Shown piece after piece: positions 45,171-61,600 of a stretch of DNA of 64,000 nucleotides. The position numbers and the translations under genes are program-made. The stretch's first letter is position 1. Each line of letters opens with the position of its first letter. The stretch covers positions 288,001-352,000 of the forward strand of contig JBFWNU010000005.1 of assembly GCA_050250895.1 (NCBI GenBank). The letters are read 5' to 3'. Origin of the DNA: Vulcanimicrobiota bacterium (GTDB taxonomy: Bacteria; Vulcanimicrobiota; Xenobia; Xenobiales; JADMJV01). The notes under the pieces were generated by a model, which saw only the letters and a program-made list of their open reading frames with translations, made no database searches and was not told the DNA's origin.

Positions 45171-45188
45171 GGACCCATCCAGACGCCG

Positions 45189-46058
45189 CTAACCCCAGAA
45201 GCGCTGCAGCGTTTCCCTGGCCTCGGTCGACCCCAGGTCGGCCTGCTCGGCCAGAAACTCGCGGGCGGCCTCCAGGCGAGTGATGGCGATCGCTTCCAAC
45301 AGAGCTCGCCGATCCTCCGGCTGGGCCAGACGAGGATGCAGCTCGAGCAGCAGTGCCAGCGACTCGGTCCGGCGGGATTCGCCCAGAGCCAGCAGGGCCA
45401 TCGGCCAGACCGGGTCGGCGGGAGAGGTGAGGAAGTAGGAGCGGATATAGTCCACTGCTCTGGCTCCGCCCAGGGCAAAGAGCCCGGTCAAGCACTCCAG
45501 GGCCACCTCGCCGACCTCTTCACCCCGCAGCAAATGCGAGAGCAATAAAGCTGCTCCCTGGGTTTCGCCGTTCTCGACCACGGCTCGGGCCGCATAGCTG
45601 CGGGCCACCGGCTCAGGGTCGGCCAGCAGAATGGCCAGGTCTTCGAGCACGTCGCGGCGGTGACTGCGGACCAGACCGACCGCGCACAGCCCGCGCACCT
45701 CGGCGGCCGTATCCACGGGGCCACCGTAGGCCGCCTCGATCTGTCGCAGGCGCACGCCCCGGGCGTAGAGTTGTTGCTCGGAGACTTCCAGTTCACACAG
45801 CGCCCGTGCCAGCGCGGTCTTGGCTTCACAACCTTTGTCAGCATTGGCATCGAGGTCGAACAGGCGGGTCAGGGTGGTGACCAGATTGGGGGCCAGGGCC
45901 TGAAGTCGATGCTGCTCGATCTTCTTGGCCGCCCGGGCCACTACCAGGTTAGATTTGTGGGATAGGGCTTCGAGCAGCGCTTGCTCGCCCTCGGGTGAAC
46001 GAAGGTCGAGTTTGCTCAGGCGCTCGAGGGCGTCTCGGGTGGGGTCGCGTTTGGCCAT
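45189..46058 (-). CDS. HEAT-repeat protein
   Basis: Helical repeats (LLADPEPVAR, ALLALGESR). Confidence 0.75.
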   Translation of the reverse strand: MAKRDPTRDALERLSKLDLRSPEGEQALLEALSHKSNLVVARAAKKIEQHRLQALAPNLVTTLTRLFDLDANADKGCEAKTALARALCELEVSEQQLYARGVRLRQIEAAYGGPVDTAAEVRGLCAVGLVRSHRRDVLEDLAILLADPEPVARSYAARAVVENGETQGAALLLSHLLRGEEVGEVALECLTGLFALGGARAVDYIRSYFLTSPADPVWPMALLALGESRRTESLALLLELHPRLAQPEDRRALLEAIAITRLEAAREFLAEQADLGSTEARETLQRFWG

Positions 46059-46399
46059 TGGGTTGGCTTCAAGAAAGGCGCCGGCGCTCCTACGAGGGTT
46101 GCACTGCCCGCAGTAGTCAGCTGCCGCATGGCTTGGCGCTGGTCAGTCCGGGGTAAGAGGTTCGTAGTGACGGGCAGACGTGTACTTTCCCTTGGGGCTG
46201 GCGGGGGTACTTCAGAGAGCACGATAGGTTCTTCCAAGAGCGGATCGCGCAAGTCTAGACTGCAGTATAACCAAGAAGGGGAATTCAAATATGTCGGCTG
46301 AACCATCAAATGACAGCACCTTGTTTCGGGAGGCCTGAGCCTGCCGGGACGGATTATCGCAATTGGGCACCAGACCGCGCCGCGGGCTGGTCGTGAAAG

Positions 46400-47311
46400 A
46401 TGACCTCGAAGCCTTTGCTCCAAACCGCAGAGTCCCCTCCCGAAGTGGTGGAGGAAGCTCCCACCGAACATCCCCACCCTCCCCACCCCTGGGACCCGGC
46501 CGCCGCCGCCATCTTGCTGATGGTGCATCTCGGCTGCCTGCTGGCCCCGTTTACCTTCAGTTGGTCCGGCCTGGGGGTGTGCATCTTGCTGTACTGGCTC
46601 ACCGCCATGGGAGTCACACTGGGATATCATCGCCTGCTGACCCACCGCAGCTTCAAAACCTTCCGGCCGCTGGAATATTTCATCACCTTCTGGGCCCTGC
46701 AAGCCTGTCAGGGGGGGCCGGCCACCTGGGCCGCGGTTCATCGACTCCACCATAAGCACTCTGACGAAGAAGGGGACCCCCACGGAGCCGATGTCGGCTT
46801 CTGGTGGTCTCACCTGGGGTGGATGCTGGTCCGTCCTCCCTGCGCCACGGACCCTAGCATCAAGAGCAGGATGGCCCCCGACCTGCTAAAAGATCCTGTC
46901 TACCGCTTCGCGGACAAGTACTACCTCGCGCTGGTGATCTTGTTTGGTGTGTTTTTGCTGTCGGTCGGGGGGCTGAGCTGGCTGGTCTACGGCATGTTCT
47001 TGCGCCTGACTCTGGTCTATCACGCTACCTGGCTGGTTAACAGCGCTTCCCACAAATACGGCTATCGCAGCTATCCCACCAACGATCTTTCCACTAACTG
47101 CTGGTGGGTTGCGCTGGTAAGCTTCGGCGAGGGATGGCACAACAACCATCACGCTTTCCCTCATTCGGCCAGGCATGGACTGCGCTGGTGGGAGTTCGAC
47201 GCCACCTACGCCGCCATCTTGCTGATGGAGAGAGTGGGTCTGGCCTGGAACGTGCGACGTCCCAAGCCCGGAGTCACTGCGGCGCCCTCCATTGGCGAAC
47301 CCACGGGCTGA
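46400..47311 (+). CDS. acyl-lipid/acyl-CoA delta-9 desaturase
   Basis: His boxes HRLLTH, HRLHH, GEGWHNNHH. Confidence 0.95.
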   Translation: MTSKPLLQTAESPPEVVEEAPTEHPHPPHPWDPAAAAILLMVHLGCLLAPFTFSWSGLGVCILLYWLTAMGVTLGYHRLLTHRSFKTFRPLEYFITFWALQACQGGPATWAAVHRLHHKHSDEEGDPHGADVGFWWSHLGWMLVRPPCATDPSIKSRMAPDLLKDPVYRFADKYYLALVILFGVFLLSVGGLSWLVYGMFLRLTLVYHATWLVNSASHKYGYRSYPTNDLSTNCWWVALVSFGEGWHNNHHAFPHSARHGLRWWEFDATYAAILLMERVGLAWNVRRPKPGVTAAPSIGEPTG

Positions 47312-47424
47312 ATCTCTTCATTTGGTTACCACCAGGCGTACCACCATACCTTCTTCAGGTATCGGCAGGTCTAGCCCGTAGCGGCGGGGACCATTACACT
47401 GATGAAGACCAGGAGGATACAGCA

Positions 47425-47814
47425 ATGCAGTTCGAACTCAACACTGATAACCACGTGAACGGCAGCCAGGCATTGAACCGTCACGTCGGGCGCCTCGTCG
47501 AGTCTAAATTGGGGCGTTTCGGGGATCGCGTGACCCGGGTGGAGGTCCAACTCGGGGCCGAAGATGGCAGCCCAAAGTCCCGTTTGACCCGATGTGTGAT
47601 GGAGGCCCGTTTGGCGGGTTTCGAGGCAATCGCGGTGACTCACCAGGCCGAGTCGGTGGACCAGGCCCTCCGGGGGGCCGCCGACAAGCTGGAGAGGACG
47701 CTAGGTCGAACTATGGGCCGGCTCCAATACGTCAAGGGACGCACCCCACCCTACAGCGGGTTTAGTACCGACGATCGGGTCGAGGACGAGCCCAACGCCG
47801 CCGACCAGGTTTGA
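47425..47814 (+). CDS. HPF/RaiA family ribosome-associated protein
   Basis: AGGAGG SD; MQFELNTDNH..RFGDRVTRVEV..RCVMEARLAG..A.DKL. Confidence 0.85.
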   Translation: MQFELNTDNHVNGSQALNRHVGRLVESKLGRFGDRVTRVEVQLGAEDGSPKSRLTRCVMEARLAGFEAIAVTHQAESVDQALRGAADKLERTLGRTMGRLQYVKGRTPPYSGFSTDDRVEDEPNAADQV

Positions 47815-48203
47815 CCCGTCCTGACGCGGAGTATCCTGGCGAGAGTACTCGCGTACTCTCGAGCGGTTACCGTCGGGACTGGTTCAATGACCGTGGCCCC
47901 GTCATACTGGAACAGATACTCGTTGATTGGAAGATCATCTTGCTCGACAAGGCAGAATCACAACAGCTCTCCCAGTGGCTCGATCGAGCTTATCGCAAAC
48001 AGTTGCCTCCCAACTTGATGGAGTTGAAGAAGCAACGGGACGAGGCCGAAGCCGCCGTCGGAGAAATGGAGTTGCCCGCCGAGACCCGCCGGGCGATGGA
48101 GCTGTTTTTGGCCTTGCATCAGGCCGACACCAGGTTGCTGTACGGAGTGGTGGAGTCGCTCTTCAAGCGCCACCTACGAGGACATCATAAGCCTGGGCAA
48201 TAG
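47811..48203 (+). CDS. hypothetical protein
   Basis: ORF overlapping previous stop; helical composition. Confidence 0.45.
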   Translation: MTRPDAEYPGESTRVLSSGYRRDWFNDRGPVILEQILVDWKIILLDKAESQQLSQWLDRAYRKQLPPNLMELKKQRDEAEAAVGEMELPAETRRAMELFLALHQADTRLLYGVVESLFKRHLRGHHKPGQ

Positions 48204-48299
48204 GCTTTCCTCAGGGTGTCAGTGGCCAAAACACCGGAATCAACAGTATCGCTATCAGCCAGCACAATAGGTTGAGCGGTACGCCCACTCGGAGGAAGT

Positions 48300-48900
48300 C
48301 CGAGAAACGATAGTGCCCCGGTCCGAAGATCGGCGGCCGTGGCCAGGTTCGAGATCAGTTCGGTCAAGACCATTGTGAGAAGGTAGAGCCCAGCCAGGAC
48401 CGCGATAGGTCCGGAGGCTGCCAGTGTGCTCGCCACCGTTGTGGCCGCTCTCGGCTATTCCGGTTTTCTCGAGAGCGGTCCCCAGGCTCAGGGCTCCGGC
48501 CAGCAGAAACAGCACTTTGAGGTCCAGGGCGCGGTAGGCCTCGCTCAGGGTCAGGCAGCCCGACAGGACCATGATCAGGGCCCCGGTGATAGCGGCGACC
48601 TCGATCGAAGCAGCTCCCAGTGCGGCCGCTAGCACGACGCCGGCGAAGACGGCTACCGCCAGAGGGGCCCTCCGACGCCGATACCAGGATGCATCCATCT
48701 CATTGAGCAACACAAAGGACGGATCACTCTTGAGGATGTCGAGTCGCTCCCGGCTGGCCTCGATTAGAAGACCGTCTCCGGCTCGCAGTAAGATACTGCC
48801 CAGATTCTCGTGGACCAGCTTGTCTCGCTGACGGATGGCGATGGCGGTGGCTCCGTAGCGGGCCCGACGGAGACACCGTGGGTGTGGGATGATTTGCTCT
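48300..48900 (-). pseudogene. fragment of SLC13/TrkA-C domain permease
   Basis: TrkA-C end plus TM helices (VLSGCLTLSEAYRAL..LSLGTALEKTG), continuing in another frame ([17 protein letters not shown]); N- and C-termini missing; ends approximate. Confidence 0.75.
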
Positions 48901-49191
48901 CGGATGAGCGATGGGGGGTCCAGGGCATCGTCCTCCCGGACTGAACTGGCCCCAGACTTCGGCCCGCTCTGGTGGGACACCAAATCGAGGACATTTCTTC
49001 GAGTTTCGCGCTCGGCATTCTTGACTTTCGCATAGTCCCCCCTCTGAGGTCTATCTCAAGCGTCCGCCCGGGGTCCCTGCTGTCTGTCCTCGCCTGCAAG
49101 GATCGCAATACTCAGTTTGCCTTGATCCGCGCCTGGCAGCCGCGCCGAGCCTCGACGAGGGTTGTAGCGGGTGGGCGGCGTAGCCAGGGAT

Positions 49192-50163
49192 ATGCGCGTC
49201 TTTGTCACCGGAGCCACCGGCCTGCTTGGCTCCAACCTCTGCCATCTGCTAGTCGAGAAAGGCCACGAGGTCGTCGCCCTGGTGCGCGACCCCGACAAGG
49301 CTCGCCAGCAGCTGCCCGCGAGCACCCACTTCGTGGTGGGCGATCTGGAGGGCATCGCAGCCGTGGAAGACGACCTGGGCGCTTGCGAGGGTGTGGTTCA
49401 CTGCGCCGCCTACTTCCGCGAGTATTACAAGCGTGGCAACCACTGGCCCAAGCTCGAGCGACTCAATGTCGAGGCCACCATGCAACTGGCCGAGATGGCC
49501 TATCGCCACGGCGTCAAGCGGTTCGTGCACATCAGCTCGAGCGGCACGGTGGGCGATCCCGGCGACGAGAGCGCTCCCCCCGGGCCCGAGGTCGAGCACA
49601 ACCTCTATTTCAAGAGCAAGGTGCTGGCCGACCGCCGCCTGGCCGAGTGGCCCCATAGCGACGAGGTCGGTTTGGTGACGGTTCTGCCGGGTTGGATGTT
49701 CGGCCCCCGCGACGCCGCTCCCACCGGGTCGGGCCAACTGGTTCGCGATTTTCTGGCCGGTCAGTTGCCGGCTGTGCCACCCGGTGGCACGACCGTGGTC
49801 GACGCCCGCGACGTGGCCGACGCCATCGTGCGAGTGCTCGAGCAAGATACGCCTTCTGACCGCTACATCGTGGCCGGCCGCCCGGCCACCCTGCGCGAGA
49901 TCGCCGACGGCCTCGAGCGGGTCTCGGGCAAGCCAGCCCCTCGTTTGAATCTGCCCTATCTGGTGGCGCTGATTCTGGCTACCATCCTCGAGTTGGTAGC
50001 CCGCCTGTTTGACAAGGACCCCTTGATGACCCGTTCGGCCGTCAAGACCATGGCTCACAACCGGCATCACTACTCGCGCCGGGCCGAGCGCGAACTGGGC
50101 GTCGAGTTTCGACCCCTCGACGAGACCTTGCGCGACTGCGTGGAGTGGGCCCGCGCCCATTAG
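49192..50163 (+). CDS. NAD-dependent epimerase/dehydratase (dihydroflavonol reductase-like SDR)
   Basis: VTGATGLLG, YFKSK, PGWMFGP, VDARDVA. Confidence 0.93.
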   Translation: MRVFVTGATGLLGSNLCHLLVEKGHEVVALVRDPDKARQQLPASTHFVVGDLEGIAAVEDDLGACEGVVHCAAYFREYYKRGNHWPKLERLNVEATMQLAEMAYRHGVKRFVHISSSGTVGDPGDESAPPGPEVEHNLYFKSKVLADRRLAEWPHSDEVGLVTVLPGWMFGPRDAAPTGSGQLVRDFLAGQLPAVPPGGTTVVDARDVADAIVRVLEQDTPSDRYIVAGRPATLREIADGLERVSGKPAPRLNLPYLVALILATILELVARLFDKDPLMTRSAVKTMAHNRHHYSRRAERELGVEFRPLDETLRDCVEWARAH

Positions 50164-50176
50164 ACCGCCACGATGA

Positions 50177-50191
50177 GACCCGCCCGGGTCA
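50177..50191. repeat. palindrome P, degenerate copy (GACCCGCCCGGGTCA)
   Basis: Variant of TGACCCGCGCGGGTCA just downstream of the epimerase stop. Confidence 0.7.
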
Positions 50192-50404
50192 ATCGACACC
50201 TCGGGAGGCGAACTCGGCTGGTAATCGTGGGGTGGCGGTGAGAACCAGCCCTCTCGCAGCTGACCACAGTTGTAACAGACCAGGCTGTGACGATCGCCCA
50301 GGCACTCAGCGGCCGCGAGCGATGAGACCCCGGTCCACTTGGCGGGGTCTGCCTGGCCTGGGTGTCCATGCGCGTCCAGGCTCGCGACGTGCTATGCTGT
50401 GGGC

Positions 50405-50809
50405 ATGTCCGTATTGGAGAGGATGGTCCACGCCGTGGAAAAAGTGCGTCAGAGGCTGCGCCGAGCGAGCCAGGCGCTCGACGACGCGCAAGTGCACTAT
50501 GCCGTGGTGGGAGGCAACGCCGTGGCCGCCTGGGTTGCGAGTATCGACGAGGGGGCCGTTCGGCGAGAAGGTGCGTCCTGAGTATGTAGAGCCGACTCCC
50601 TCGGTTGAAGAGGCCGAGCGACTGGGGGAGATTACAGTCCTCGGTCTGGCAGCGCTGGTGCGCATGAAGTTGACCTCCTTTCGCGATAAGGATCGGACCC
50701 ATCTGCGAGATCTCATTGAGGTGGGCTTGAGAGGAGAGGGTTGGCCCAGCCGCCTCCCGTCTCCTTAGGCGAGCGCTTGCAGGCTCTGCTCGACGACCCC
50801 CACGGCTAG
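50405..50809 (+). pseudogene. nucleotidyltransferase family gene with internal deletion and frameshifts
   Basis: N-part YAVVGGNAVAAWV..AVR joined out of frame to C-part GEKVRPEY..MKLTSFRDKDRTHLRDL; the DxD region expected between them is absent. Confidence 0.8.
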
Positions 50810-50865
50810 CCAACGGGAACTTTCCCAAACCCAGGCTTCGCCAGACGACTCCAGAAGAGGTAGGG

Positions 50866-51606
50866 ATGGGCGAGCACAAGAAGACGACCTACGATATCCC
50901 CGTCGAGTCGGAATCGGCCGAGTCCCTGGTCGAGACTACGCGTGAAACCGAGCGCCTGGCGGGTGGTCAGATTCTCGAGGAGACGCGTCCCGGATTTCTC
51001 GAGCTTGCCGTCGATGCCTACGCCTATGCCGAGGAGCTGATCGATCAGGCTGCCAAACGCTACTACCCGCCGCTGGCTTGCTCGCAAGGGTGCAGTTATT
51101 GCTGCCATCTGCCGGTGAGCGTGTCGGTGGCCGAGGTGGTGGCCGTGCTCGACTACGTCCAGGAGAACTTCTCCGCTGACGAACGCGAAGCCTTGCGCCA
51201 GCGCGTGGCCCAACGCTACCAGGAGGTGGTGGAGTTGAGCGACCAGGAGCGAAAGCACACCAACATTCGCTGTCCGCTGCTCGACGAGGCCGGTCGCTGC
51301 TCGGTGTATCCGGTTCGCCCACTAGCCTGTCGAGGGTTCAATTCCACCGACTTAGAGGCTTGCCGTCAGCGCTTCGAACATCCCGAACTCGACCTCTCCA
51401 ATCCGGCCTTCGGCTACAACGTCCAGGCCGCGCTCGGGGTCGCGCAAGGTGTTCAGCAAGCCCTGCAAGACGCTGGCCTCGAGCCTATCGAACTCGACCT
51501 GATCAGAGCCCTTCGCCTCTTCTGGAGTGACCCCCAACGAGTGCTGAAGAAGTGGCGCAAGCGAGGGCGCCGAGCCATCAAGGCGGCCCAGCGCTCTGAC
51601 CTTTGA
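50866..51606 (+). CDS. YkgJ family cysteine cluster protein
   Basis: CSQGCSYCC..CPLL..CSVYPVRPLACR. Confidence 0.88.
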   Translation: MGEHKKTTYDIPVESESAESLVETTRETERLAGGQILEETRPGFLELAVDAYAYAEELIDQAAKRYYPPLACSQGCSYCCHLPVSVSVAEVVAVLDYVQENFSADEREALRQRVAQRYQEVVELSDQERKHTNIRCPLLDEAGRCSVYPVRPLACRGFNSTDLEACRQRFEHPELDLSNPAFGYNVQAALGVAQGVQQALQDAGLEPIELDLIRALRLFWSDPQRVLKKWRKRGRRAIKAAQRSDL

Positions 51607-51617
51607 GCGCCCCGCGG

Positions 51618-51632
51618 GACCCGCGCGGGTCA
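51618..51632. repeat. palindrome P (GACCCGCGCGGGTCA)
   Basis: Read directly; lies between convergent stops. Confidence 0.9.
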
Positions 51633-51633
51633 A

Positions 51634-52353
51634 CTAGGCGTCGATGGTTTCAATCAACAAGTCCGGCCTTTCTCGCTGCAGCAGGTCGACCAACTCTCCT
51701 CCCGCCCATAGGTGCTGAAAGTCCACCGCCCGCTCGGTGCTGCGCCTGAGCCTGAGTAAGAGAGCGCCATTGCCCTGAAAGACCTCGAGCAGATGCGGGT
51801 TGCGGTCGGGAAAGAAGCGCTTGAGGAGAGGGTCGAACTCGCCTTGCTCGAGGCCGTGTTCCTCGAGTTCAATAGCGACTTCGACGGGGTCGGTTCCGAT
51901 GGGAGCGACTACCAGGCAGGTCGTCTCTTCTGGGCTTGCCGCCTGGAATTCGGGCGGCCGGCCCGGCCAGATCGTCTGATAGACCCCGACCATTTGAGGA
52001 AATCCCGAGAGCACCTCGGGAGCCGAGCCTGGTTGGTAGTCGTCGGGTGGTGGCGAGTACCAGCACTCCACGAGTTGGCCGCAATTGCAGCATACCAGGC
52101 TGTGGCGGTCGAGAAGGTACTCGGCGACACCGAATCGGTCGTTCTTCTTGCAGCGAGGGCACCGCGGCGGGCGCAGAGGTAGGAAGTTGAGCTTCTGATA
52201 GAGCCGGGAGCCGAGCCACAAAGCGAGGGCTGGCCCGAGCGCCGTCCAGCTCGCGGCCGCGTACGGATGGGAGGACAATAGCAAACACCCAGGACATACA
52301 GCCAGCACGAACAGGCCGTTCAAAATCAGCAAATCGATCAGGGTCAAGCGCAC
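51634..52353 (-). CDS. hypothetical membrane protein with zinc-ribbon motif
   Basis: Two TM segments, CPRC..CCNC; lies wholly between two P palindromes; start approximate. Confidence 0.6.
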   Translation of the reverse strand: MRLTLIDLLILNGLFVLAVCPGCLLLSSHPYAAASWTALGPALALWLGSRLYQKLNFLPLRPPRCPRCKKNDRFGVAEYLLDRHSLVCCNCGQLVECWYSPPPDDYQPGSAPEVLSGFPQMVGVYQTIWPGRPPEFQAASPEETTCLVVAPIGTDPVEVAIELEEHGLEQGEFDPLLKRFFPDRNPHLLEVFQGNGALLLRLRRSTERAVDFQHLWAGGELVDLLQRERPDLLIETIDA

Positions 52354-52591
52354 ACTCTGCTTTATACCCGCCAGGTGACCCGCGCGGGTCAAAATTTCTA
52401 AAAGAAATTGCTAGAAAGCGTCACCCGTCGCCAAATGAGATCCCTGCGTGTCGAAGCCATCTCAGGCGGCTTGAATGCCTTTCTCGGCCACTTTGACAAG
52501 AATTCTGACTTAAAGTTCGGCGGCCCCTCGAAAAGTCCCGCAAATCATCGGCTAGAAGAGGCGCAATTGCCTATGAAATCTAGGTTTTAGC

Positions 52592-52633
52592 TGTTCGAGG
52601 TTTTTGACGAACACCGGCCTGGATTGCTAGGAT
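52592..52633 (+). promoter_or_regulatory. sigma70-type promoter (TTGACG, extended -10 TGcTAGGAT) overlapped by inverted repeat TGTTCG-N10-CGAACA
   Basis: Both boxes and the inverted repeat are conserved in copy 2; -10 lies 6 nt before ATG. Confidence 0.7.
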
Positions 52634-52639
52634 CTAGTT

Positions 52640-53677
52640 ATGAATCCGAGCGAAAATTCTCCTCAGTTCTGGCATCTCGCCCATCTCTCGACTCTCACCG
52701 CCGACCAGTTGGCCGACCTCACTCGCCGGGTGGTCGGCAGCCTCACCCTGCTGCGCCTCTATCTCGGGCGTTGCCTTTTGGCCCTCGAGCGCTCGAATGT
52801 CGATTGGGCCTTTCGTGGCAGTGTCCACTATGCTTCGCTGCTGGGCGTTCCGCGCCGGCGGGCTCGCGAGGCGATGCGAGTGGCCGAGCGCTTGGAAGAG
52901 TTGCCGGTGTTACGGCGGGCGGCCGAGCAGACCGAGGTTAGCTGGTCGAAACTGCGCGAAGTGGTACGAGTGGCCACGGTCGAGACCGAGAGTGAGTGGT
53001 TGGCCGTGGCCGAGCGATGGGGCTATCGTCGGGTGGAGAAGCTAGTGGCCCAGGCGAGCCTCGGCGACCGGCCGGGTGAGGCCAGCCGCGAGCCCGAAGA
53101 GATCGAGGTGATTCTTCGACTCTCTCCGACTGTCGCAGCGGTGTGGCAACGAACGATGCGACGGCTGTCGCAAGAGGCGGGCCGGCTGGTGAGTGCGGCC
53201 GAGGCCCTCGAGCTTTTGTGCGCCGACTATCTGTCCGGACCGGTTGAGGAAGTGCTGGCCGAGGGCGAGAAAGACGTCGAGGCCGAGTGGGCCATGGTGG
53301 CCTCGGACGACGAAGATGGCCTGGTCCAAAAGGCTGACCCGCACTGGGCCAACGAGCGCTTACGCTGGGCTGGCGACCAGCCGATTACTCCCGCTCAACG
53401 GGCCGAGGTGCTGCGACGCGATGGCTACAGTTGCCAGTGCCCAGGCTGCGAAAACCGGCTCTGGCTCGAGGTGCATCACGTCGTCTTCTACTGCCGCGGC
53501 GGAGCGACCGTCCCGGATAACCTCATCGTGGTGTGCTGGTCGTGCCACCGGCGTATTCACAAAGGTTGGCTGCGAGTGAGCGGAACGGCGCCGAGCGGGC
53601 TGGTTTGGACCGACCGGCACGGTAACGAGTTGACCCCACCCGAGCGGCTGGGTCGGCTGGCGTGGCTCTCGGGCTGA
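52640..53677 (+). CDS. HNH endonuclease with helical DUF222-like N-terminus
   Basis: VLRRDGYSCQCPGC..LEVHH..GG.T..DNLIVVCWSCH; its stop TGA is the first triplet of P (53675-53690). Confidence 0.9.
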   Translation: MNPSENSPQFWHLAHLSTLTADQLADLTRRVVGSLTLLRLYLGRCLLALERSNVDWAFRGSVHYASLLGVPRRRAREAMRVAERLEELPVLRRAAEQTEVSWSKLREVVRVATVETESEWLAVAERWGYRRVEKLVAQASLGDRPGEASREPEEIEVILRLSPTVAAVWQRTMRRLSQEAGRLVSAAEALELLCADYLSGPVEEVLAEGEKDVEAEWAMVASDDEDGLVQKADPHWANERLRWAGDQPITPAQRAEVLRRDGYSCQCPGCENRLWLEVHHVVFYCRGGATVPDNLIVVCWSCHRRIHKGWLRVSGTAPSGLVWTDRHGNELTPPERLGRLAWLSG

Positions 53678-53768
53678 CCCGCGCGGGTCACTTCCGTTCG
53701 AGGACGTGACCGACCCCGCCGGCGCTGGCTGACAAGGTCAGGGATGCACGCGCGACGAATTGTGACAA

Positions 53769-53957
53769 ATGGACATCGGACTCGAGCCTGACCCCGTCAT
53801 CGAATTCTATAAACGCGATGTCGACATCACTCTCGTGCGCGAGAGTCTGAAGCTGACCGTGCAAGAACGGGTGGACCGGCTCATCGCCCTGCAGCTAGCA
53901 GCCGAAGAGTTCCGGCGTGCTGGCGAGCGGATGCGACAAAGCCGACAAAATGACTGA
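53769..53957 (+). CDS. small protein, putative antitoxin partner of nucleotidyltransferase
   Basis: DPVIEFYKRDVDITLVRESLKLTVQER; overlaps next start. Confidence 0.7.
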   Translation: MDIGLEPDPVIEFYKRDVDITLVRESLKLTVQERVDRLIALQLAAEEFRRAGERMRQSRQND

Positions 53958-54122
53958 CTTCAAGTCCCTGATTCGACGGCTTCACGAGAATTCGGTCGAC
54001 TTCATCGTTGTTGGCGGGTTCGCGGGGACCGTCCACGGAGCCAGGTAAAACGCGCGGCCGGTCGGCCAAAAGACTTTGAGGCCATCGCTGAGCTAGAGCG
54101 CCTGGCTGAGGAGCAGAGTTGA
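53950..54122 (+). pseudogene. nucleotidyltransferase gene remnant with large internal deletion
   Basis: MTDF..VDFIVVGGFAGTVHGA joined out of frame to VKRAAGRPKDFEAIAELE. Confidence 0.8.
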
Positions 54123-54143
54123 CAGTGCCTCGCCTGGCGGGCT

Positions 54144-54191
54144 TGACCCGCGCGGGTCAGTAGGCGCGTAGATTGTGACCCGCGCGGGTCA
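54144..54191. repeat. two perfect P palindromes separated by 16 bp
   Basis: TGACCCGCGCGGGTCA at 54144-54159 and 54176-54191. Confidence 0.95.
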
Positions 54192-54390
54192 AATTTTTCA
54201 AGAAAATTTCGCGCCACGGCCGATTGCGCCGAAACGAGATCCCGGCATGGGGAAGGCACTTGAGGCGGCTTGAATGCCTTTCTCAGCCAGTTTGACAAGA
54301 ATTCTGACTTGAAGTTCGTTCGGTCCCCGGAAAGTGCCGAAAATCATCGGTTGTGAGAGGCGCAATTGCCTATTAAATAGGGCTTTGAAG

Positions 54391-54432
54391 TGTTCGATGT
54401 TTTTGACGAACAGGGCGCCTGATTGCTAGGAT
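54391..54432 (+). promoter_or_regulatory. promoter/operator of HNH copy 2
   Basis: TGTTCG-N10-CGAACA, TTGACG, TGcTAGGAT 6 nt before ATG. Confidence 0.7.
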
Positions 54433-54438
54433 CTAGCT

Positions 54439-55476
54439 ATGAAACCAAACGAAAATTGCCCTCAGTTCTGGCGTCTTGCCCATCTCTCCACCCTCACCGC
54501 CGACCAGCTCGCCGACCTCACTCGCCGCGTCGTCGGCAGCCTCACTTTGCTGCGCCTGTATCTAGGCCGTTGCCTGCTGGCCCTCGAACGCTCGAATGTC
54601 GATTGGGCCTTTCGTGGCAGCGTCCACTACGCTTCGCTGCTGGGTGTTCCACGCCGCCGGGCTCGCGAGGCGATGCGAGTGGCCGAGCGCTTGGAAGAGT
54701 TGCCGGTGTTACGGCGGGCGGCCGAGCAGACCGAGGTTAGCTGGTCGAAACTGCGCGAAGTGGTACGAGTGGCCACCGCCGAGACCGAGAGCGAGTGGTT
54801 GGCCGTGGCCGAGCGTTGGGGATATCGTCGGGTCGAGAGACTGGTGGCCCGGGCCAGGATTGGTGATCGGCCGGGCGAGGCCAGCCGCGAGCCCGAAGAG
54901 ATCGAGGTGATTCTTCGACTTTCTCCGACTGTCGCCGCGGTGTGGCAACGAACGATGCGACGGCTGTCGCAAGAGGCGGGCCGGCTGGTGAGTGCGGCCG
55001 AGGCCCTCGAGCTTTTGTGCGCCGACTACCTGGCCGGACCGGTTGAGGAAGTGCTGGCCGAGGGCGAGAAAGACGTCGAGGCCGAATGGGCTATGGTAGC
55101 GGCCGGCGAGCAGGATGGGCTGGTCGCCAAAGCGGACCCGCACTGGGCCAACGAGCGCTTGCGCTGGGCTGGCGACCAGCCGATTACTCCCGCTCAGCGG
55201 GCCGAGGTGCTGCGTCGCGATGGCTACAGTTGCCAGTGCCCAGGCTGCGAAAACCGGCTCTGGCTCGAGGTGCATCACGTCGTCTTCTACTGCCGCGGCG
55301 GAGCGACCGTCCCGGATAACCTCATCGTGGTGTGCTGGTCGTGCCACCGGCGTATTCACAAAGGTTGGCTGCGAGTGAGCGGAACGGCTCCGGGCGGCCT
55401 GGTTTGGATCGACCGCCACGGTAACGAGTTGACCCCACCCGAGCGGCTGGGTCGGCTGGCCTGGCTCTCGGGCTGA
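54439..55476 (+). CDS. HNH endonuclease, paralog of 52640-53677
   Basis: 345 aa, about 17 substitutions versus copy 1 by manual count; stop inside P. Confidence 0.9.
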   Translation: MKPNENCPQFWRLAHLSTLTADQLADLTRRVVGSLTLLRLYLGRCLLALERSNVDWAFRGSVHYASLLGVPRRRAREAMRVAERLEELPVLRRAAEQTEVSWSKLREVVRVATAETESEWLAVAERWGYRRVERLVARARIGDRPGEASREPEEIEVILRLSPTVAAVWQRTMRRLSQEAGRLVSAAEALELLCADYLAGPVEEVLAEGEKDVEAEWAMVAAGEQDGLVAKADPHWANERLRWAGDQPITPAQRAEVLRRDGYSCQCPGCENRLWLEVHHVVFYCRGGATVPDNLIVVCWSCHRRIHKGWLRVSGTAPGGLVWIDRHGNELTPPERLGRLAWLSG

Positions 55477-55486
55477 CCCGTGCGGG

Positions 55487-56449
55487 TCACTTCCGTTCCA
55501 GGACATGGCCGACCCCGCCAGCGCTGATCATCAGGGTTTCTAGGTAGAGCTCCATCACCGTTTCGCCATCGAACTCACACGCGATGATATAGCCGCCCTC
55601 CGTGTAGTTTCCGCCACCGGTCGGCTGACGGTGAGTCATGAAAGGCCATCTCAAGGCAGTCCGTGTGCACAGCCCGAGCATGCCTCGAGCAGGCAGAGAT
55701 TCTTCCTTCCCCGGGGTATAGGCGTCCAGCCGCGCCCGAAGCTCGGAAACGGTCAACGAGCAATCCAGCTCTTCCTTGCCGAGCTTGAGTTGGCATCCGG
55801 GGCCGCCGAAGTAGTTGAGTTGGCCCTTGTGATAGAAGGCCGAAAGGTTGTCGTAGAGCCAAACCGATCGCCGTCCGGGGCGGCCCGGGCCGAGACGTTC
55901 TTCGACCTCGGCCTGGGTCATCCCAAGTTTGACGCCATTGGCCGAGACCTCGGGCTTCGAGTCGGGTTGGTTCCTCAGCTTGAGCGCCTGGATCTGGCGG
56001 TCATCCGGAAAGACCATCTGAGCGAACATGACAATTCCCAGTTCCTGGGCGGCAAAGTCATCACGACGCGCCAAGCCGTCGGGGCCCACGAAGGTCCATT
56101 GCTGGCAATGGTAGGAGATGAGCAGGTCGAGCCGTTGCGGCCCATGATGAAAGCGGAAGGCCACCTCAGGGGCATGGTCACAATCGCGAAGCTTGGCCTC
56201 AGGGTCGGATGCCCACTTCTTCTCGACCAGGCCGCAAAGCCAGAGGTAGGTTCCGCGGCGCAGTTCGACCTTTGCCAGAACTGGGTGGCCGCGAACCGAC
56301 GATTGCGCGGAGCCCGGTGATTTCTCGCCAAGACGAAATGCCTCGACTCTGTCGCATTTGTCGAAGATGACTCGATTGGTCTGGCCGAGGAATTCGTCGA
56401 GAGACTTCGCCCTGGGCCATGACCGAGGGTCGTCCTGGTCGGGCTGCAT
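55487..56449 (-). CDS. hypothetical protein
   Basis: TATCAT 6 nt before ATG; GVKLGMTQAEVEERLG motif; C-terminus and stop come from element tail and P. Confidence 0.7.
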   Translation of the reverse strand: MQPDQDDPRSWPRAKSLDEFLGQTNRVIFDKCDRVEAFRLGEKSPGSAQSSVRGHPVLAKVELRRGTYLWLCGLVEKKWASDPEAKLRDCDHAPEVAFRFHHGPQRLDLLISYHCQQWTFVGPDGLARRDDFAAQELGIVMFAQMVFPDDRQIQALKLRNQPDSKPEVSANGVKLGMTQAEVEERLGPGRPGRRSVWLYDNLSAFYHKGQLNYFGGPGCQLKLGKEELDCSLTVSELRARLDAYTPGKEESLPARGMLGLCTRTALRWPFMTHRQPTGGGNYTEGGYIIACEFDGETVMELYLETLMISAGGVGHVLERK

Positions 56450-56483
56450 CCTTTTATGATAACCCAAGCTCGGCTCGTGGGTC

Positions 56484-56583
56484 GACCCGCGCGGATCATT
56501 TCCGTTCCAGGACATGGCCGACCCCGCCAGCGCTGACCATTAGGGTTTCTAGGTAGAGCTCCATCACCGTTTCGCCATCGAAC
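56484..56583 (+). repeat. ~100-bp direct repeat of 55475-55574 (degenerate P + tail + 3' end of adjacent gene)
   Basis: Near-identical by eye with a few transitions. Confidence 0.9.
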
Positions 56584-56645
56584 ACCTGCGCTGTGCGCTG
56601 CATGCGCAAACCCGTCCTAGCCGGCAGCGGCGGCGCGGCCACCAC

Positions 56646-57070
56646 CTCGCGACCCGCCACCCTCGCCGGGCCGAGCCGGCCATTCGGCAGCACACACTGC
56701 CAAATTCGGCGTACCACGCTGCCGAATCTGGCCAGCCTACTTCCACGTGGAAGTCCCGCCCGGGCCGCCCTCGCGACCCGCGACCCTCGCCATGGCCGGC
56801 CACACACTGCCGAACCCGGCGTACACGCTGCCAAATTTTGACTAGCCCCACTTCCGCACGGAAGTCACCGACTAGAGCCGCCTCCGCCCACGGCAGGCCC
56901 GCTCCCGCCGGCCGGGGCAAGTCGCCCGCAGCCAGCGACAAGAATCCGCCGTCCTCCCCGGGGCCGGGCCGGCCATTCGACAGCACACACTGCCGAATTC
57001 GGCTTACCACGCTGCCGAATATGATAGCCCCACTTCCGCGCGGAAGTCCTGCTCGGGCCGCCCTCGCCCG
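56646..57070. repeat. three degenerate hairpin-rich repeat units, each with ACTTCC-N4-GGAAGT
   Basis: cacacactgcc at 56691, 56801, 56984; palindromes at 56739, 56850, 57032. Confidence 0.88.
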
Positions 57071-57072
57071 GG

Positions 57073-57972
57073 CTAACGCGGCCCTGACCCGCGCGGCTCG
57101 ACGGCCCCTCGGGTTGGCGTGAATCGGGTGACCAGCCAGTCTTCGTTGAGTGCGTGCGAGTCCAGGTGCTCGCCTCGCTCTATGTCGAAAACCGAGTGAA
57201 CAGCCACTTCCTTGTAGATGATGTCGTCTCCACGCTCAGGGTCCATCACGTCCTGACCCTCGGTGGCTCTCGCCAAAAGGTAGTTTTTCGAAAGCACGGC
57301 CGTAAAGGAGAAATCAAGCTCGTCGGCTGGTAGCTGTCGCTGCTCGATTTGGCCGGTCTCCAGGTCGATCCGCCACATCCGGTCATTTGACCAGAGAAAC
57401 AGAAATCGGCCGCTGGGATCCAGTCCGCCATCCTCGATTGTCTGGCGTGATCTTAGCTTGTGCAGCAGGCTCGACTCTCCGTTGCGAATGGCGTGAACTT
57501 CTCGGCCACGTATCGTGTAGACAGTCTGCCCGTCCGGCGCCACTGCTAGCAGTCGTCTTCCTGGCTCAGGCTTGCAGAGCTGGCGCTCGCCACGAGCGTC
57601 AATGACGTAAAGTGTGCCGCGGGGAGTGCTAAAGATGACATTGCCATCCTGGTCGAGGACGAAGTTTTCGACCCGGCGGGATGTGGCCAACCTGCACCGT
57701 CGAGCTCGCTCGGGTTTACAGAATAGGCTCCTGGGGCCGAAATCGTCAGACAGAAAATAGAGTGTAGCCTGCTTGTCGATGGACGGTTTGGTCTCGCGGC
57801 CAGGCCGCTCGAGGATTTCCTCAAATTGCTCGGTGGTGACCCTCTGGTGTTCGGGGTTGATCTCGAGGGTCGTGCGAATGAGGTCGGTATCGGCGTGACG
57901 ACAATAGCACGTCTCGCGCTCACCGATTAGCGCGAAGCGAGGTTTGATGGGATTCGACGTCATAGGGTTCAT
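57073..57972 (-). CDS. hypothetical protein, beta-propeller-like
   Basis: TACGCT 6 nt before ATG; repeated LDQDG/VAPDG/LDPSG turn motifs. Confidence 0.65.
   Translation of the reverse strand: MNPMTSNPIKPRFALIGERETCYCRHADTDLIRTTLEINPEHQRVTTEQFEEILERPGRETKPSIDKQATLYFLSDDFGPRSLFCKPERARRCRLATSRRVENFVLDQDGNVIFSTPRGTLYVIDARGERQLCKPEPGRRLLAVAPDGQTVYTIRGREVHAIRNGESSLLHKLRSRQTIEDGGLDPSGRFLFLWSNDRMWRIDLETGQIEQRQLPADELDFSFTAVLSKNYLLARATEGQDVMDPERGDDIIYKEVAVHSVFDIERGEHLDSHALNEDWLVTRFTPTRGAVEPRGSGPR
57085..57100. repeat. palindrome P, degenerate copy (TGACCCGCGCGGCTCG)
   Basis: Two mismatches; overlaps 3' end of the minus-strand ORF. Confidence 0.65.
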
Positions 57973-58052
57973 GACGATAGCGTAGCAGCCGTCCTGCGAA
58001 CGAAGTTCGCTTCAACAGCGAATGAAAGGTGAAGAAGTCACCAAGCGGTCAG

Positions 58053-58580
58053 CTAGCTCGGGTCGGTCGGCGGTTTGCGGAGCTTGCGAAGTGCCTTTGC
58101 CTCGATCTGGCGGATCTGCTCGCGGGTCATGCCGAGGCATTGAGCCACCTCCTCGAGGGTGCGAGGTCGGCCGTCGTCCAAGCCGAAGCGCACCGACATG
58201 ACCTCTTTCTCGTGAGCGGTCAACTCCACCAGCGCGGCCTCCATCTGGGCCCGCAGCATTTGGCAGGCAGCCGTCTCGATTCGCTCAGGAGACTGCATAC
58301 CCAGGTACTCGCGTACGCGGGCCTGAGTGAAGCGCCTCCTTTTGGCCATCTCCTGGTCAACCAATGGGTCGGCCAACGTGACCTGGCGGTAACGGCACAC
58401 CTGGCGCCATACGTCCTGGCGGTCGACTGGATACATAGCTTCGGCGATCTCCTCGACCGAGGGTGGATAGCCGAGTTCGTCCTGGAGCTGCCGGATGATC
58501 GCGTTCATGCGCTCGACTGCCTCCTGGGGCGGGCCGTCCGTCTTCGTCACCAGTTCGGCAAATTCATCATCCTGTCCCAC
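58053..58580 (-). CDS. sigma-70 region 3/4-only protein
   Basis: LQDELGYPPSVEEIAEAM (r3); RFGLDDGRPRTLEEVA..TREQIRQIEAKALRKLR (RpoD-type r4). Confidence 0.8.
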   Translation of the reverse strand: MGQDDEFAELVTKTDGPPQEAVERMNAIIRQLQDELGYPPSVEEIAEAMYPVDRQDVWRQVCRYRQVTLADPLVDQEMAKRRRFTQARVREYLGMQSPERIETAACQMLRAQMEAALVELTAHEKEVMSVRFGLDDGRPRTLEEVAQCLGMTREQIRQIEAKALRKLRKPPTDPS

Positions 58581-58677
58581 ACATGGTTATTCGACCACCG
58601 CATCAAGTGGCCTTCGCCAGTCCTAGCAGGCAAAAGCTCCTCCGAGGAGAATGGCTGCGCCGCCTGGAGGTTGAAAA

Positions 58678-61600
58678 ATGGAGACTTTGCCCGCCCTGAC
58701 CACGCAGGTGGTCCGTATCAGCTCGCTTCGCCCCGAGTGGGAGCCGCGCGGCCCCCATCTGACAGCGGCCGCGCATCGCTTTGGGTTCACAGGGGTCAGC
58801 CGAATCAAGGTCAGCCGGCTCTACTTTCTGCAGGGCCAGGTCGAGGCGGGCGAGATCGCAGAGAAGTTTCTGGTCGACCCGGTGGCTCAGCGCTTCGAGG
58901 TGGGTGTGGTCGAGGCCGGCCCGAACCTGGTCGAGGTGACCTTTCATCCGGGCGTGACCGATAGCGAGGCCGACAATCTGGTGGCCGCGGCCAAACGGGC
59001 GGGATATCGGCTGGAAGCGGCGGCTACCGGCTGGAGTTATCAGGTCGAGGGCCAGGTCGACGACCTCAAAGCCCTGGCCGAACGGGTGCTGGCCAATCGC
59101 GTGGTCCAGTCGATCGCGGTGGGAACTCCCATCGCCTCGCCGTTAGAAGAGCCGGCGGCAGTGACTCCGCGGGTCGAGCGGGTGCCTTTGAGCGGGCTTG
59201 AGAAAGCGCAACTCCTCGAGCTGAGCCAGCGGCTCGCCCTGGCTTTGGATGAAGCCGAGATGAGCGCCATTGCGGCTTATTTTGCCCAAGAAGGCCGCGA
59301 GCCCAGTCTGGCCGAGCTGCAGACCCTGGCTCAGACCTGGAGCGAGCACTGTGTGCACAAGACTTTTCGAGCCACTATCGACTATCGCGGGCCCGACGGT
59401 GAAGAGGTGGTCGACGGGCTGCTTTCGACCTATCTGCGCCGGGCCACCGAAGAGCTCGACCGCGAGTGGGTGGTGTCGGCCTTTGTCGACAATGCTGGCC
59501 TGGTGCGCTTTTCTGAGCATTATGACCTGGCCATCAAGGCCGAGACCCACAACCACCCCTCGGCCCTCGAGCCGTTTGGCGGGGCCAATACCGGAGTGGG
59601 CGGGGTGGTGCGCGACATCCTGGGCGTGAGCGCCCGGCCCATGGCCAATACCGACGTGCTTTGCTTTGCTCCACCCGAGACCGACGACGTGCCCGAGGGC
59701 AGCCTGCATCCAGTCACCGTCATCGACGGGGTGGTGCGGGGCATTGCCGACTATGGCAACAAGATGGGCATTCCCACCGTGGCCGGTGGGGTGGTCTTTC
59801 ACCCGGATTATGTGGCCAACCCGCTGGTCTATTGCGGTTGCCTGGGTATCTTGCCGCGAGGAGGGCACCCTACCGGGGCGCGGGCCGGCGACCGGGTGGT
59901 GGTGGTGGGCGGCCGCACCGGACGCGACGGCCTGGGCGGAGCCACTTTCTCGAGTATGGAGATGGATGTCTCGACGGCCGCAACCTTCTCGACGGCCGTC
60001 CAGATCGGCAACCCGATTGTCGAGAAGCTGGTGGGCGAGGCCTTGCTGGTGGCCCGCGACCAGGGGCTTTATGCGGCCGTGACCGACTGCGGGGCGGGCG
60101 GGCTTTCGTCGGCGGTGGGCGAGATGGCCGGCGAGCTGGGAGCGGTGGTGCAACTCGAGACCGTGCCCACCAAGTATCCGGGGCTGCTGCCCTGGGAGCT
60201 GTGGTTGTCTGAGGCTCAGGAGCGGATGGTTTTTGCCGTGGCCGACGAGCACTGGGACGCCTTCGAAGCGGTCTTTACCGACCACGGGGTCGAGGCTGTG
60301 ACCATCGGTCGCTTCGGCAACCGGGGGCGTCTGCGGCTGGTCTATGGCGAGTTGGAAGTGGCCGACCTGGCTACCGATTTTCTGCATCACGGCATTCCGC
60401 GCCAGCGGCGCACGGCCGAGTGGCAAGCTCCGGGCGGCCGGCGGGAGAGCTTGCCTGAGGTTGAAGCGGGACAGGCCCTGCTCAAGCTGCTGGCCGAGCC
60501 TAACCTTTCGAGCCGCCAGGCGGTGGTGGCCTACTTCGACAGCGAGGTCCAGGGAGGCACGGCCGGCAAGCCCGAGCCGACGGCCGACGGCAGCGTGCTG
60601 GTGCCGCTCGAGTTGCAGGGCCAGAGCGATCCGCCCGCGGCGGTGCTGGGGTTGGGGATGTGTCCCCATCGCAGCGCTTCAGACCCGCGCCTGATGGCCT
60701 GGATGGCCGTGGATGAGGCCGTTCGCAACGCTGTGGTCAAGGGGGCCGACCCCGATCAGATCGCTTTGCTCGACAACTTTTGCTGGGGCAATCCGCGCCT
60801 GCCCGACCGATTGGGAGCGCTGGTGCGCTGTTGCCAGGGTTGTTATGAGGCCTCGATGGCCTATGGGGCTCCGTGGGTGTCGGGCAAAGACAGCTTGAAC
60901 AACGAGTTCAAGACCGCCGACGGCAGTCGCAAGGCCATTCCCGGAACGCTGTTGATCCACGCGCTGGGGCGCTTGCCGAAGGTATCGCTGACCGTGCCCG
61001 ACCGGCTGCAAAAGGCTGGCCACGCGCTTTATGTGGTGGGCGAGACGGCCGATGAGTTGGGGGATTCGGCCTATCTGCGTGCTTTCGACGGCCACTCGGC
61101 CCGGCTGCCCCAGCCGCGGCCTGAGGCCCTCGAGAACTACCGCCACTATCACCGGGCGGTGTTGGCCGGCCTGGTGGTGTCGGCTCATGACCTCAGCGAC
61201 GGTGGCCTGGCCGTGGCCCTGGCCGAGATGTGTCTGGCCTCGGGCCTGGGAGCCGAGCTGGAGAAGACCGACATGGTCACGCTCTTCTCCGAGTCGATGG
61301 GGCGCCTGCTGGTCGAGGTGGCCGATGGACCGACGTTCGAGCAGGCGGTTCCGGCGGCGCGCCGAGTGGGTCAGGTGAGCGCCGAGCCCCGCTTCCTGGG
61401 GGTCGCGGTTTCGCGGCTGAAGGCGGCCTTTGAGAACCATCCTTTTGACTTTCTCGAGCTGAGCCAGGCCCAGCCACCCGCCTTTACCAGCCGGCTGGCG
61501 CCGGCGCCGGCCCTGGTCAAGGCTCCGCGGGTGGCGGTGTTGACGGCCCCCGGAAGCAATCGCGAAGAAGAGGCCCGGCTAGCCCTGGAGCTTGCCGGAG

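Follow-up and report, generated by a model that had tools for sequence, protein, structure and literature searches.

Palindrome-flanked HNH genes in a Vulcanimicrobiota bacterium: a probable cluster of multi-copy DUF222-HNH elements with lineage-specific palindromes

The REP13E12 repeats of mycobacteria are multi-copy elements of roughly 1.3–1.4 kb, and such DUF222-HNH repeats have been known since the first Mycobacterium tuberculosis genome. REP sequences (repetitive extragenic palindromes) are, to our knowledge and apart from the proposal set out below, explained only by REP-associated tyrosine transposases (RAYTs). Likenesses to both systems are found in a 64,000-nucleotide stretch of contig JBFWNU010000005.1 (assembly GCA_050250895.1, positions 288,001 to 352,000, forward strand) from a Vulcanimicrobiota bacterium, which is referred to here as the window. 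An island of 7 kb within it, at window positions 50176–57100, contains nine copies of a 16-bp perfect palindrome, TGACCCGCGCGGGTCA (hereafter P), together with two closely related genes, HNH-A and HNH-B, whose products carry an HNH nuclease motif. The island is probably a local cluster of one subfamily, termed subfamily 1, of multi-copy DUF222-HNH single-gene elements, in a REP/RAYT-like arrangement that employs a different enzyme.

A 2026 preprint (PMC13061034) places REP13E12 loci among the strongest gene-conversion hotspots of M. tuberculosis and describes them as having no defined function. Such hotspots would fit a nuclease that promotes recombination at its own repeats, without proving it. 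The literature on REP13E12, DUF222, HNH and RAYT, as far as it was searched, contains no link between HNH or DUF222 genes and REP-like palindromes, and matching palindromes are not mentioned there. As in REP13E12, each of the multi-copy repeats described here encodes a single protein, with a putative DUF222-type region at its N-terminus and an HNH motif at its C-terminus. The genome that contains the window holds 53 loci of this kind, including 10 copies of a second subfamily that are 90–96% identical in DNA sequence. The subfamily-1 protein differs from the mycobacterial one in having no Pfam DUF222 match at E-values up to 10.

The likeness to REP/RAYT (REPIN) systems lies in the short GC-rich palindromes at gene ends and in arrays, in a gene flanked by its own type of palindrome, in the pairing of different gene lineages with different palindromes, and in the ability of palindrome pairs to form a long hairpin. 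The differences are equally specific. The enzyme is an HNH nuclease rather than a Y1 HUH transposase, the HNH gene is multi-copy whereas the RAYT gene is single-copy, and one of the two matching sites lies inside the HNH open reading frame (ORF). Furthermore, P itself has only 14 copies in the genome, below the level of more than about 100 copies that marks high-copy extragenic palindromes.

Pattern searches at up to three mismatches found P 11 times in the window against 0.98 matches expected, and none of 100 shuffled sequences reached 11. Nine of these matches, at up to two mismatches, make up the island series P1 to P9, which starts at 50176, 51617, 52376, 53675, 54144, 54176, 55474, 56483 and 57085 with 2, 1, 0, 0, 0, 0, 1, 2 and 2 mismatches, respectively. 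Successive starts are separated by 1441, 759, 1299, 469, 32, 1298, 1009 and 602 bp. The other two matches, at 1941 (three mismatches) and 4618 (two mismatches), have the arms alone in common with P. Since the arm-only pattern GACCC-N4-GGGTC is at background level in the genome, with 41 copies against 27–152 for seven control arm pairs, these two matches are probably due to chance.

In the whole genome (9.5 Mb in 17 contigs, 99.6% complete), P occurs as four exact copies, all inside the island, and as three copies with one base changed. Its 14 copies at up to two mismatches comprise the nine island sites, the match at window 4618, two sites that flank a third HNH copy on another contig (C3:854129 and C3:855425) and two elsewhere, so that 11 of the 14 lie in the island or at the flanks of the third HNH copy. 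P is private to the subfamily-1 HNH gene. That it might itself be a genome-wide REP was considered and ruled out by this copy number and by the background level of the arm-only pattern.

P is placed at gene boundaries. Both HNH stop codons in the island are the first three bases of a P copy, and the last three bases of P supply minus-strand stop codons to an ORF at 55487–56515, an ORF at 56496–56834 and a gene fragment at 50197–50311. A preliminary description of the window had already reported nine palindromes with these spacings, their position at gene boundaries and their absence from the remainder of the window, and it had stated that the similarity between the two HNH units starts exactly at the palindrome. 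Each of these statements survives closer analysis, with three start coordinates shifted by one base, with two arms-only matches, probably due to chance, outside the island and with the similarity beginning one base before P. The clustering of P with HNH paralogues that it envisaged, as opposed to a uniform scatter, is likewise what the genome-wide distribution displays.

The repeated unit of subfamily 1 is about 1.3 kb long and consists of P, a 248-nt leader (P starts 264 nt before the ATG), an ORF of 345 amino acids, a second P that overlaps the TGA stop codon, and a tail of 30 nt. A promoter-like sequence, TTGACG-18-TAGGAT, at 52604–52633 in unit A, ends 7 nt before the ATG. The features of the two island units are as follows.

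52376–52391, no strand: P3, exact, left end of unit A, 264 nt 5′ of the ATG.
52392–52639, plus strand: leader of unit A, homologous over its full length to the leaders of subfamily 2.
52640–53677, plus strand: HNH-A, 345 amino acids, with an N-terminal DUF222-like region and the HNH motif at amino acids 267–308; its TGA is the first three bases of P4.
53335–53350, no strand: degenerate P-like site (TGACCCGCACTGGGCC, four mismatches) in the linker of HNH-A, near the palindrome position of subfamilies 2, 3 and d.
53675–53690, no strand: P4, exact, right end of unit A, overlapping the stop codon.
53691–53727, no strand: tail of unit A, of which about 30 nt are common to units A, B and C and to the solo site P8.
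54176–54191, no strand: P6, exact, left end of unit B; P6 and the T-run behind it also match a terminator-like pattern.
54439–55476, plus strand: HNH-B, 345 amino acids, 95% identical in protein sequence to HNH-A, with a promoter-like site at 54403–54432.
55474–55489, no strand: P7, one mismatch, right end of unit B, containing the stop codons of HNH-B (plus strand) and of the 55487–56515 ORF (minus strand).

Units A (52376–53727) and B (54176–55526) are 90% identical, and the third copy, unit C on contig C3, is 85–87% identical to both. The similarity between A and B runs from one base before P (52375 and 54175) to 37 bases past the right-hand P, and alignments of all three units extend from P to 30–37 nt past the second P. 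P is best read as a private cis-site of subfamily 1 that marks the left and right ends of the 1.3-kb unit. The three HNH ORFs are intact, with synonymous divergence (dS) of 0.23–0.56 and a ratio of non-synonymous to synonymous divergence (dN/dS) of 0.09–0.11, and they are under purifying selection. Of the seven P sites at or next to unit ends, six are exact or differ by a single base, although the leaders of A and B have drifted to only 82% identity. P is thus under constraint, conserved far past the neutral divergence of the copies.

Unit C is flanked by a 30-bp repeat that matches at 28 of 30 positions, and this repeat is attributed to the tandem paralogue array around the unit. Upstream of unit C (L012, G000:C3:846000-861136), paralogous small genes whose starts resemble signal peptides are arranged in a tandem array. 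Just past the unit, at about 12000–15137 of the same stretch, a minus-strand run of near-identical repeats of about 300 bp continues to the contig end and is apparently a glycine-rich repetitive gene.

Evidence that P belongs to the HNH gene also comes from the other members of the family. HNH-A had 67 matches in its own genome, and a broader local search merges into the 53 loci. Subfamily 1 comprises units A, B and C. The 10 copies of subfamily 2 have 44–46% protein identity to HNH-A, subfamily 3 has about eight copies, the d-type has about 20 copies of about 394 amino acids, and there are several variant loci. Every HNH subfamily of this genome has its own palindrome in the same layout, and at least six palindrome–subfamily pairs co-vary.

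Of the 19 CACACGTGTG sites in the genome, 18 belong to units of subfamily 2. The left-end palindrome is followed by AAAATTTT, as in subfamily 1, and the leaders of the two subfamilies are homologous along their whole length. The internal palindrome of subfamily 2, GACACACGTGTGTC, is found at codon 226 of the ORF, within the variable linker that joins the N-terminal region to the HNH domain. The subfamily-3 palindrome, TCGTCCCCCGGGGGACGA, has eight copies, each of them in the linker of an HNH locus or fragment, and some copies have a related site upstream. Ten d-type copies were examined: ACTTCCAGCTGGAAGT precedes the ATG by 236–313 nt in eight of them and by 372 and 382 nt in the remaining two, and it recurs in the linker, at +848 to +923. 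In the variant loci, palindromes centred on GCGC or GGCC occur in both places, upstream of the ORF and within it.

A motif-free test gave the same result. Among the 43 near-full-length loci of the genome, the central 12-mer of a palindrome in the ORF or at the stop codon recurred within 900 nt upstream in 29 loci and within 900 nt downstream in only two. The upstream and internal sites have the palindrome alone in common, and not the surrounding sequence. P stands at both ends of HNH-A, HNH-B and HNH-C, and a matching palindrome stands upstream of most near-full-length loci. The co-variation of palindrome and HNH subfamily is an argument that the element's own protein recognises the palindrome.

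Two junctions also fall on palindrome edges. A gene fragment in the island abuts P1, where its 3′ part is lost, and in one copy of subfamily 2 a deletion extends from the palindrome edge as far as codon 8. From these junctions, the palindromes appear to be sites of breakage and rejoining.

A second and far more abundant palindrome family is dispersed in the same genome. One arm type, CTTCC-N4-GGAAG, reaches 413 genomic copies, compared with 5–14 for five controls with scrambled arms. Its CTTCCGYRCGGAAG subset accounts for 161 copies in 57 arrays. Thirty of the 161 sites are within 2 kb of an HNH locus, against 2.6% expected at random, and 10 of the 57 arrays are equally near. For the AGCT variant, 51 of 122 copies are in or within 2 kb of HNH loci. 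The arrays 5′ of HNH genes are tandem copies of the palindrome and the first part of the leader. Sites of the ACTTCC-N4-GGAAGT family occur mostly in arrays with periods of 120–320 bp, for example at G000:C3:618363-619234, C11:73728-74759 and C12:2944-4873.

No RAYT and no other recombinase that could account for P was detected. The RAYT/Y1 transposase family PF01797 has no match across the whole genome, and as a control the same family was found in six of 14 known genomes. A RAYT as the source of P was accordingly rejected, and with it the preliminary description's own counter-explanation that a RAYT or TnpA elsewhere in the genome accounts for P. That description had also seen no recombinase in the island, and this holds for the ORFs scanned with Pfam between 41763 and 62211 (not every short ORF was included), among which there is no integrase, transposase or reverse transcriptase domain.

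The HNH proteins themselves were placed by profile comparison. HNH-A matches PF01844 with 32.6 bits (cut-off 21.4) over amino acids 267–308. In alignments, the cysteines that bind zinc and the His/Asn residues of the motif vary little or not at all; across 36 sequences, C265, C270, H279 and H280 are invariant and C299, H303 and H307 are nearly so. The HNH region is closest to the HNH domains of IscB and McrA. In a profile search of solved structures, HNH-A matched 9k2z_A (E-value 3.9e-09) through its HNH part only, and the N-terminal region had no match.

HNH-A has no match to PF02720 (DUF222) at E-values up to 10. Nine of the 36 aligned homologues match this family, the best with an E-value of 2.1e-15, and a homologue with both PF02720 and PF01844 is 30% identical to HNH-A over 74% of the query. 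A d-type paralogue in the same genome scores 23.9 bits against PF02720, below the cut-off of 24.4 bits, and subfamily 3 gives an E-value of 0.0063. The matches of the homologues, and the paralogue so near the cut-off, support the placement of HNH-A as a putative distant member of the DUF222-HNH (REP13E12-type) family, the kinship that the preliminary description had suggested. The family is large, with 11,129 cluster representatives at E-values up to 0.001. Many homologues, which range from about 330 to 790 amino acids, match in two separate stretches, so that the linker between the N-terminal region and the HNH domain must be highly variable in length; this linker is where the palindrome lies in subfamilies 2, 3 and d.

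Two other groups of HNH proteins resemble these elements in part. IscB of the IS200/IS605 group, with its HEARO or omega RNA, shares the HNH domain and a conserved non-coding stretch upstream of the ORF. In HNH-A only the HNH part matches and nothing corresponds to RuvC: the NCBIfam IscB match (E-value 1.4e-11) covers only amino acids 254–309 and scores 44 bits against a cut-off of 175. The leader has no significant Rfam match to a guide RNA (best E-value 0.46) and no convincing RNA fold, with z-scores of −1.6 and −0.4 and a weak consensus fold of −14.3 kcal/mol. Membership of the IscB and IS200/IS605 group was rejected on the unmatched RuvC part, the low score and the negative Rfam result, and the idea of a guide RNA or structured leader, which the IscB-like HNH region had suggested, was dropped on the Rfam result and the weak folds. 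Free-standing HNH homing endonuclease genes are similar in being single selfish HNH-motif genes between host genes, for which spread by break-induced gene conversion is plausible. They differ in that no conserved host target gene is recognisable here, the presumed site is preserved whole at either side of the gene as well as at other places, and a single genome holds many copies of the gene.

Homologues in other genomes extend this picture unevenly. P at up to one mismatch is present in nine of 30 related genomes. In one genus (L022), an array of six P-type sites lies just before an HNH gene of 38% identity; in another (L049), P lies 262 nt upstream of a homologue, and P also lies in the linker of a further homologue (L054). 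A scan of assembled genome contigs with the single protein found no relative, and an alignment-based scan of such contigs found 25 loci at 24–55% identity. A metagenome scan yielded two distant loci, and a plasmid search gave no match. In assembled genomes labelled as other phyla, the homologues are multi-copy repeats of 1.2–1.3 kb that often end contigs, and many of them have a palindrome of the CCCGYRCGGG type in the ORF. In other genera, the stretches L037 (G005:C34:1-3500), L040 (G005:C6:1-3000) and L043 (G008:C55) contain three to eight P-like palindromes (TGWCCCGYRCGGGWCA) inside repeats of about 220–280 nt, and tblastn with the subfamily-1 and subfamily-2 proteins detected no HNH gene in these stretches.

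It may be inferred from the sequence that the HNH protein binds and cleaves at P and that its elements are copied as a result. The N-terminal region would bind the element's own palindrome, either as duplex DNA or as an extruded hairpin, and the HNH domain would then nick or cut at the bound palindrome. Repair would take the form of gene conversion, duplication or deletion, with its breakpoints at the palindrome, and would copy, homogenise and scatter palindrome-bearing segments. A solo P at a gene end would represent either a REP-like singleton or what is left of a unit end, and the apparent cassettes would be whatever genes and pseudogenes fall between solo P sites.

A broader proposal is put forward tentatively, as a possibility that the evidence to date leaves short of probable. 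DUF222-HNH nucleases may drive RAYT-independent REP-like repeats, with each lineage co-evolving with its own palindrome, upstream of the gene and inside it or at its end. Through cutting or nicking, segments bounded by the palindrome, neighbouring genes among them, would then be copied, amplified in tandem, deleted and reshuffled. The genome carries more than 400 REP-like palindromes and no RAYT gene was found in it, and the matching palindrome at fixed positions in each HNH lineage constitutes a testable enzyme–site pair. If true, the proposal would provide a mechanism for the long-unexplained REP13E12-type repeats and would retain the idea of punctuated segments in a weakened form. If confirmed, it would bring a second, unrelated enzyme class into bacterial palindromic-repeat biology, and might offer a supply of naturally diversified, sequence-specific HNH nucleases.

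Several observations weigh against these elements being mobilised through their palindromes. Most of the REP-like arrays, 47 of 57, are separated from the nearest HNH locus by more than 2 kb. To judge by their synonymous divergence, the copies of subfamily 1 are old, and they bear no sign of recent activity, and no target-site duplication was found at units A and B. The paired layout is firmly established in its own genome and only sporadic elsewhere: a strict paired-palindrome test singled out two of 18 loci from other genomes, with two more imperfect pairs. Internal palindromes partly coincide with semi-conserved peptide motifs (CPG, APHG), so that coding constraint may contribute to them. 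The left-end palindrome with its T-run could simply be a terminator, and at least one solo P, at 56483, arose by ordinary segmental duplication.

The solo P sites and the segments between them, often called passengers below, are as follows.

50176–50191, no strand: P1, solo, two mismatches (AGACCCGCCCGGGTCA), 12 nt past the epimerase stop codon; abuts a paralogue fragment of the 51634–52392 gene.
50197–50311, minus strand: fragment of a paralogue of the 252-amino-acid gene, 75% identical to 52012–52126; its 3′ part is gone, with the breakpoint at P1.
50406–50768, plus strand: gene remnant, 78% identical to C11:90155-90744 and lacking 164 bp of that copy.
50866–51606, plus strand: gene for a CxxCxxCC protein (PF03692, by Pfam), 246 amino acids; P2 begins 10 nt past its stop codon.
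51617–51632, no strand: P2, solo, one mismatch, between two convergent gene ends.
51634–52392, minus strand: orphan ORF, 252 amino acids from a TTG within P3, without a Pfam match.
53769–54122, plus strand: ORF of 62 amino acids followed by a truncated gene remnant (53953–54122), without a Pfam match.
54144–54159, no strand: P5, exact, solo, 16 nt from P6.
55487–56449, minus strand: orphan gene, 320 amino acids from the ATG at 56449 (342 amino acids from 56515), without a Pfam match.
56472–56583, no strand: 112-nt duplicate (92%, by sequence comparison) of 55463–55574 that includes P8 at 56483–56498 (two mismatches).
56640–57070, no strand: REP-like array with ACTTCC-N4-GGAAGT palindromes near 56739, 56850 and 57032, a family distinct from P.
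57085–57100, no strand: P9, two mismatches, within the last codons of the 57073–57972 minus-strand ORF.

The solo sites are not of one kind. P8 lies within the 112-nt duplicate, which contains the last 11 nt of the HNH gene, P8, the tail and 55 nt from the 3′ end of the adjacent gene, and P8 is therefore a copied unit end produced by segmental duplication. The surroundings of P1, P2 and P9 contain no recognisable unit remnant, and these sites, at 0–12 nt from stop codons, behave in the manner of REP singletons. P5 and P6 together resemble a REP doublet: as single-stranded DNA the pair can form a 17-bp hairpin of −23.2 kcal/mol (z-score −6.6).

Three other explanations of P were weighed against the proposal that it is the recognition site of a copying nuclease. 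In the first, which is unlikely and is compatible with the binding step of that proposal, P is an operator. The N-terminal region would auto-repress its gene through the upstream and downstream palindromes, by looping or as a roadblock, the HNH domain would act elsewhere, for example on foreign DNA, and the solo P sites and arrays would be decoys or by-products. A perfect 16-bp palindrome is the kind of site bound by dimeric regulators, each gene has two matching sites at fixed and subfamily-specific positions, stretches resembling a helix-turn-helix can be picked out by eye in the sequence of the N-terminal region, and the protein is under purifying selection as a domesticated gene would be. 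The upstream site, however, does not cover the promoter-like site but precedes it by about 230 nt, and the 413 dispersed copies, the tandem arrays and the palindrome breakpoints go beyond what regulation alone would produce. The assembly-breaking multi-copy repeats in other phyla likewise point to selfish spread.

In the second explanation, which is judged improbable, P has no enzymatic tie to the HNH protein: ordinary segmental duplication would have copied a terminator or insulator hairpin together with the HNH unit, selection on transcription would have preserved it, and the HNH gene would be a bystander with some other role. The position of P at 3′ ends and between convergent genes, the left-end P with its T-run, the origin of P8 in a duplication, and the age of subfamily-1 copies that are not obviously mobile all accord with it. 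A terminator would not be expected in a coding linker, where subfamilies 2, 3 and d carry their matching palindrome, and it would not predict the co-variation of upstream and internal sites in at least six subfamilies or variants, nor the asymmetry of 29 upstream against two downstream matches. Furthermore, only one of the nine P sites is terminator-like, the hairpin that P forms as single-stranded DNA is weak (−4.9 kcal/mol), and the solo copies at 50176, 51617, 54144 and 57085 lie in contexts that are mutually non-homologous.

The attC sites of integrons are imperfect palindromes of roughly 57–141 bp with conserved outer cores, and toxin-antitoxin genes and orphan genes are typical integron cassette cargo. 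The third explanation, an integron-like cassette system in which the HNH enzyme uses P as a crossover site to capture, excise and shuffle passengers, was that of the preliminary description and is very improbable: it draws on the repeated palindromic sites at the 3′ ends of successive small genes and at nearly every island gene boundary, on small orphan genes and remnants that look toxin-antitoxin-like by eye, on the two rearrangement breakpoints at a palindrome edge and on the division of other HNH loci into units by palindromes, but no passenger segment has a second P-flanked copy anywhere in the genome, the third HNH copy has no passengers, the genes run in both directions and at least one passenger, the 55487–56449 gene, has its own promoter-like site, no integrase-like gene is present among the scanned ORFs, P8 is accounted for by the 112-nt duplication, subfamily 2 is essentially without solo palindromes (one of 19), all eight subfamily-3 palindromes lie in HNH loci or fragments with no gene cassettes between them, and P is a 16-bp perfect palindrome that, unlike attC, has no longer conserved structure around its solo copies. 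Of the earlier suggestion that P is a recognition or crossover site for HNH-driven spread, the recognition site and its tie to the HNH gene are supported by association, conservation and co-variation; the capture and shuffling of passengers are not supported.

The passengers comprise a gene fragment, two remnants, the CxxCxxCC gene, two orphan ORFs with one known homologue each, and the REP-like array. The remnant at 50406–50768 was read by eye as nucleotidyltransferase-like and has no Pfam match. In the 53953–54122 remnant only the two ends of a gene are kept, with the 62-amino-acid ORF as its upstream partner, and by eye the two together look toxin-antitoxin-like, of the nucleotidyltransferase type. 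The sole homologue of the 51634–52392 ORF has 239 amino acids, and its start is therefore likely to be near 52353. The single homologue of the 55487–56449 gene is 82% identical. The last codons of this gene lie within the unit tail, which reads ...GGVGHVLERK on the minus strand, followed by a stop codon within P.

The window region 41763–58678, which includes the island, is a variable region. Between the orthologue of the gene at 40263–41763 and purL there are about 17 kb here, compared with about 5 kb and different genes in the same-genus genome G001, whose purL orthologue has 68% protein identity and which is too distant to show P-to-P breakpoints. A DNA search for synteny found no usable match in 16 relatives. 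Epimerase matches in five relatives are only 31–34% identical and are therefore probably paralogues.

Elsewhere in the genome, units of subfamilies 2 and 3 (for example L011, G000:C1:364000-378000, at 4786–9618) are surrounded by short ORFs, and the N-terminal part of these ORFs recurs at other places. For one such ORF there is an RHS-repeat match (E-value 0.001, 19.8 bits, below the 22-bit cut-off), and the group has the look of orphan Rhs C-terminal modules followed by small genes. A module of 250 nt that comes after the HNH stop codon is likewise repeated independently.

In the island, promoter-like sites end 6–7 nt before the starts of both HNH genes and of the 320-amino-acid ORF (52604–52640, 54403–54439 and, on the minus strand, 56456–56485). 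This short distance suggests that all three genes may be transcribed as leaderless mRNAs. The −35 element of the 320-amino-acid gene lies inside P8.

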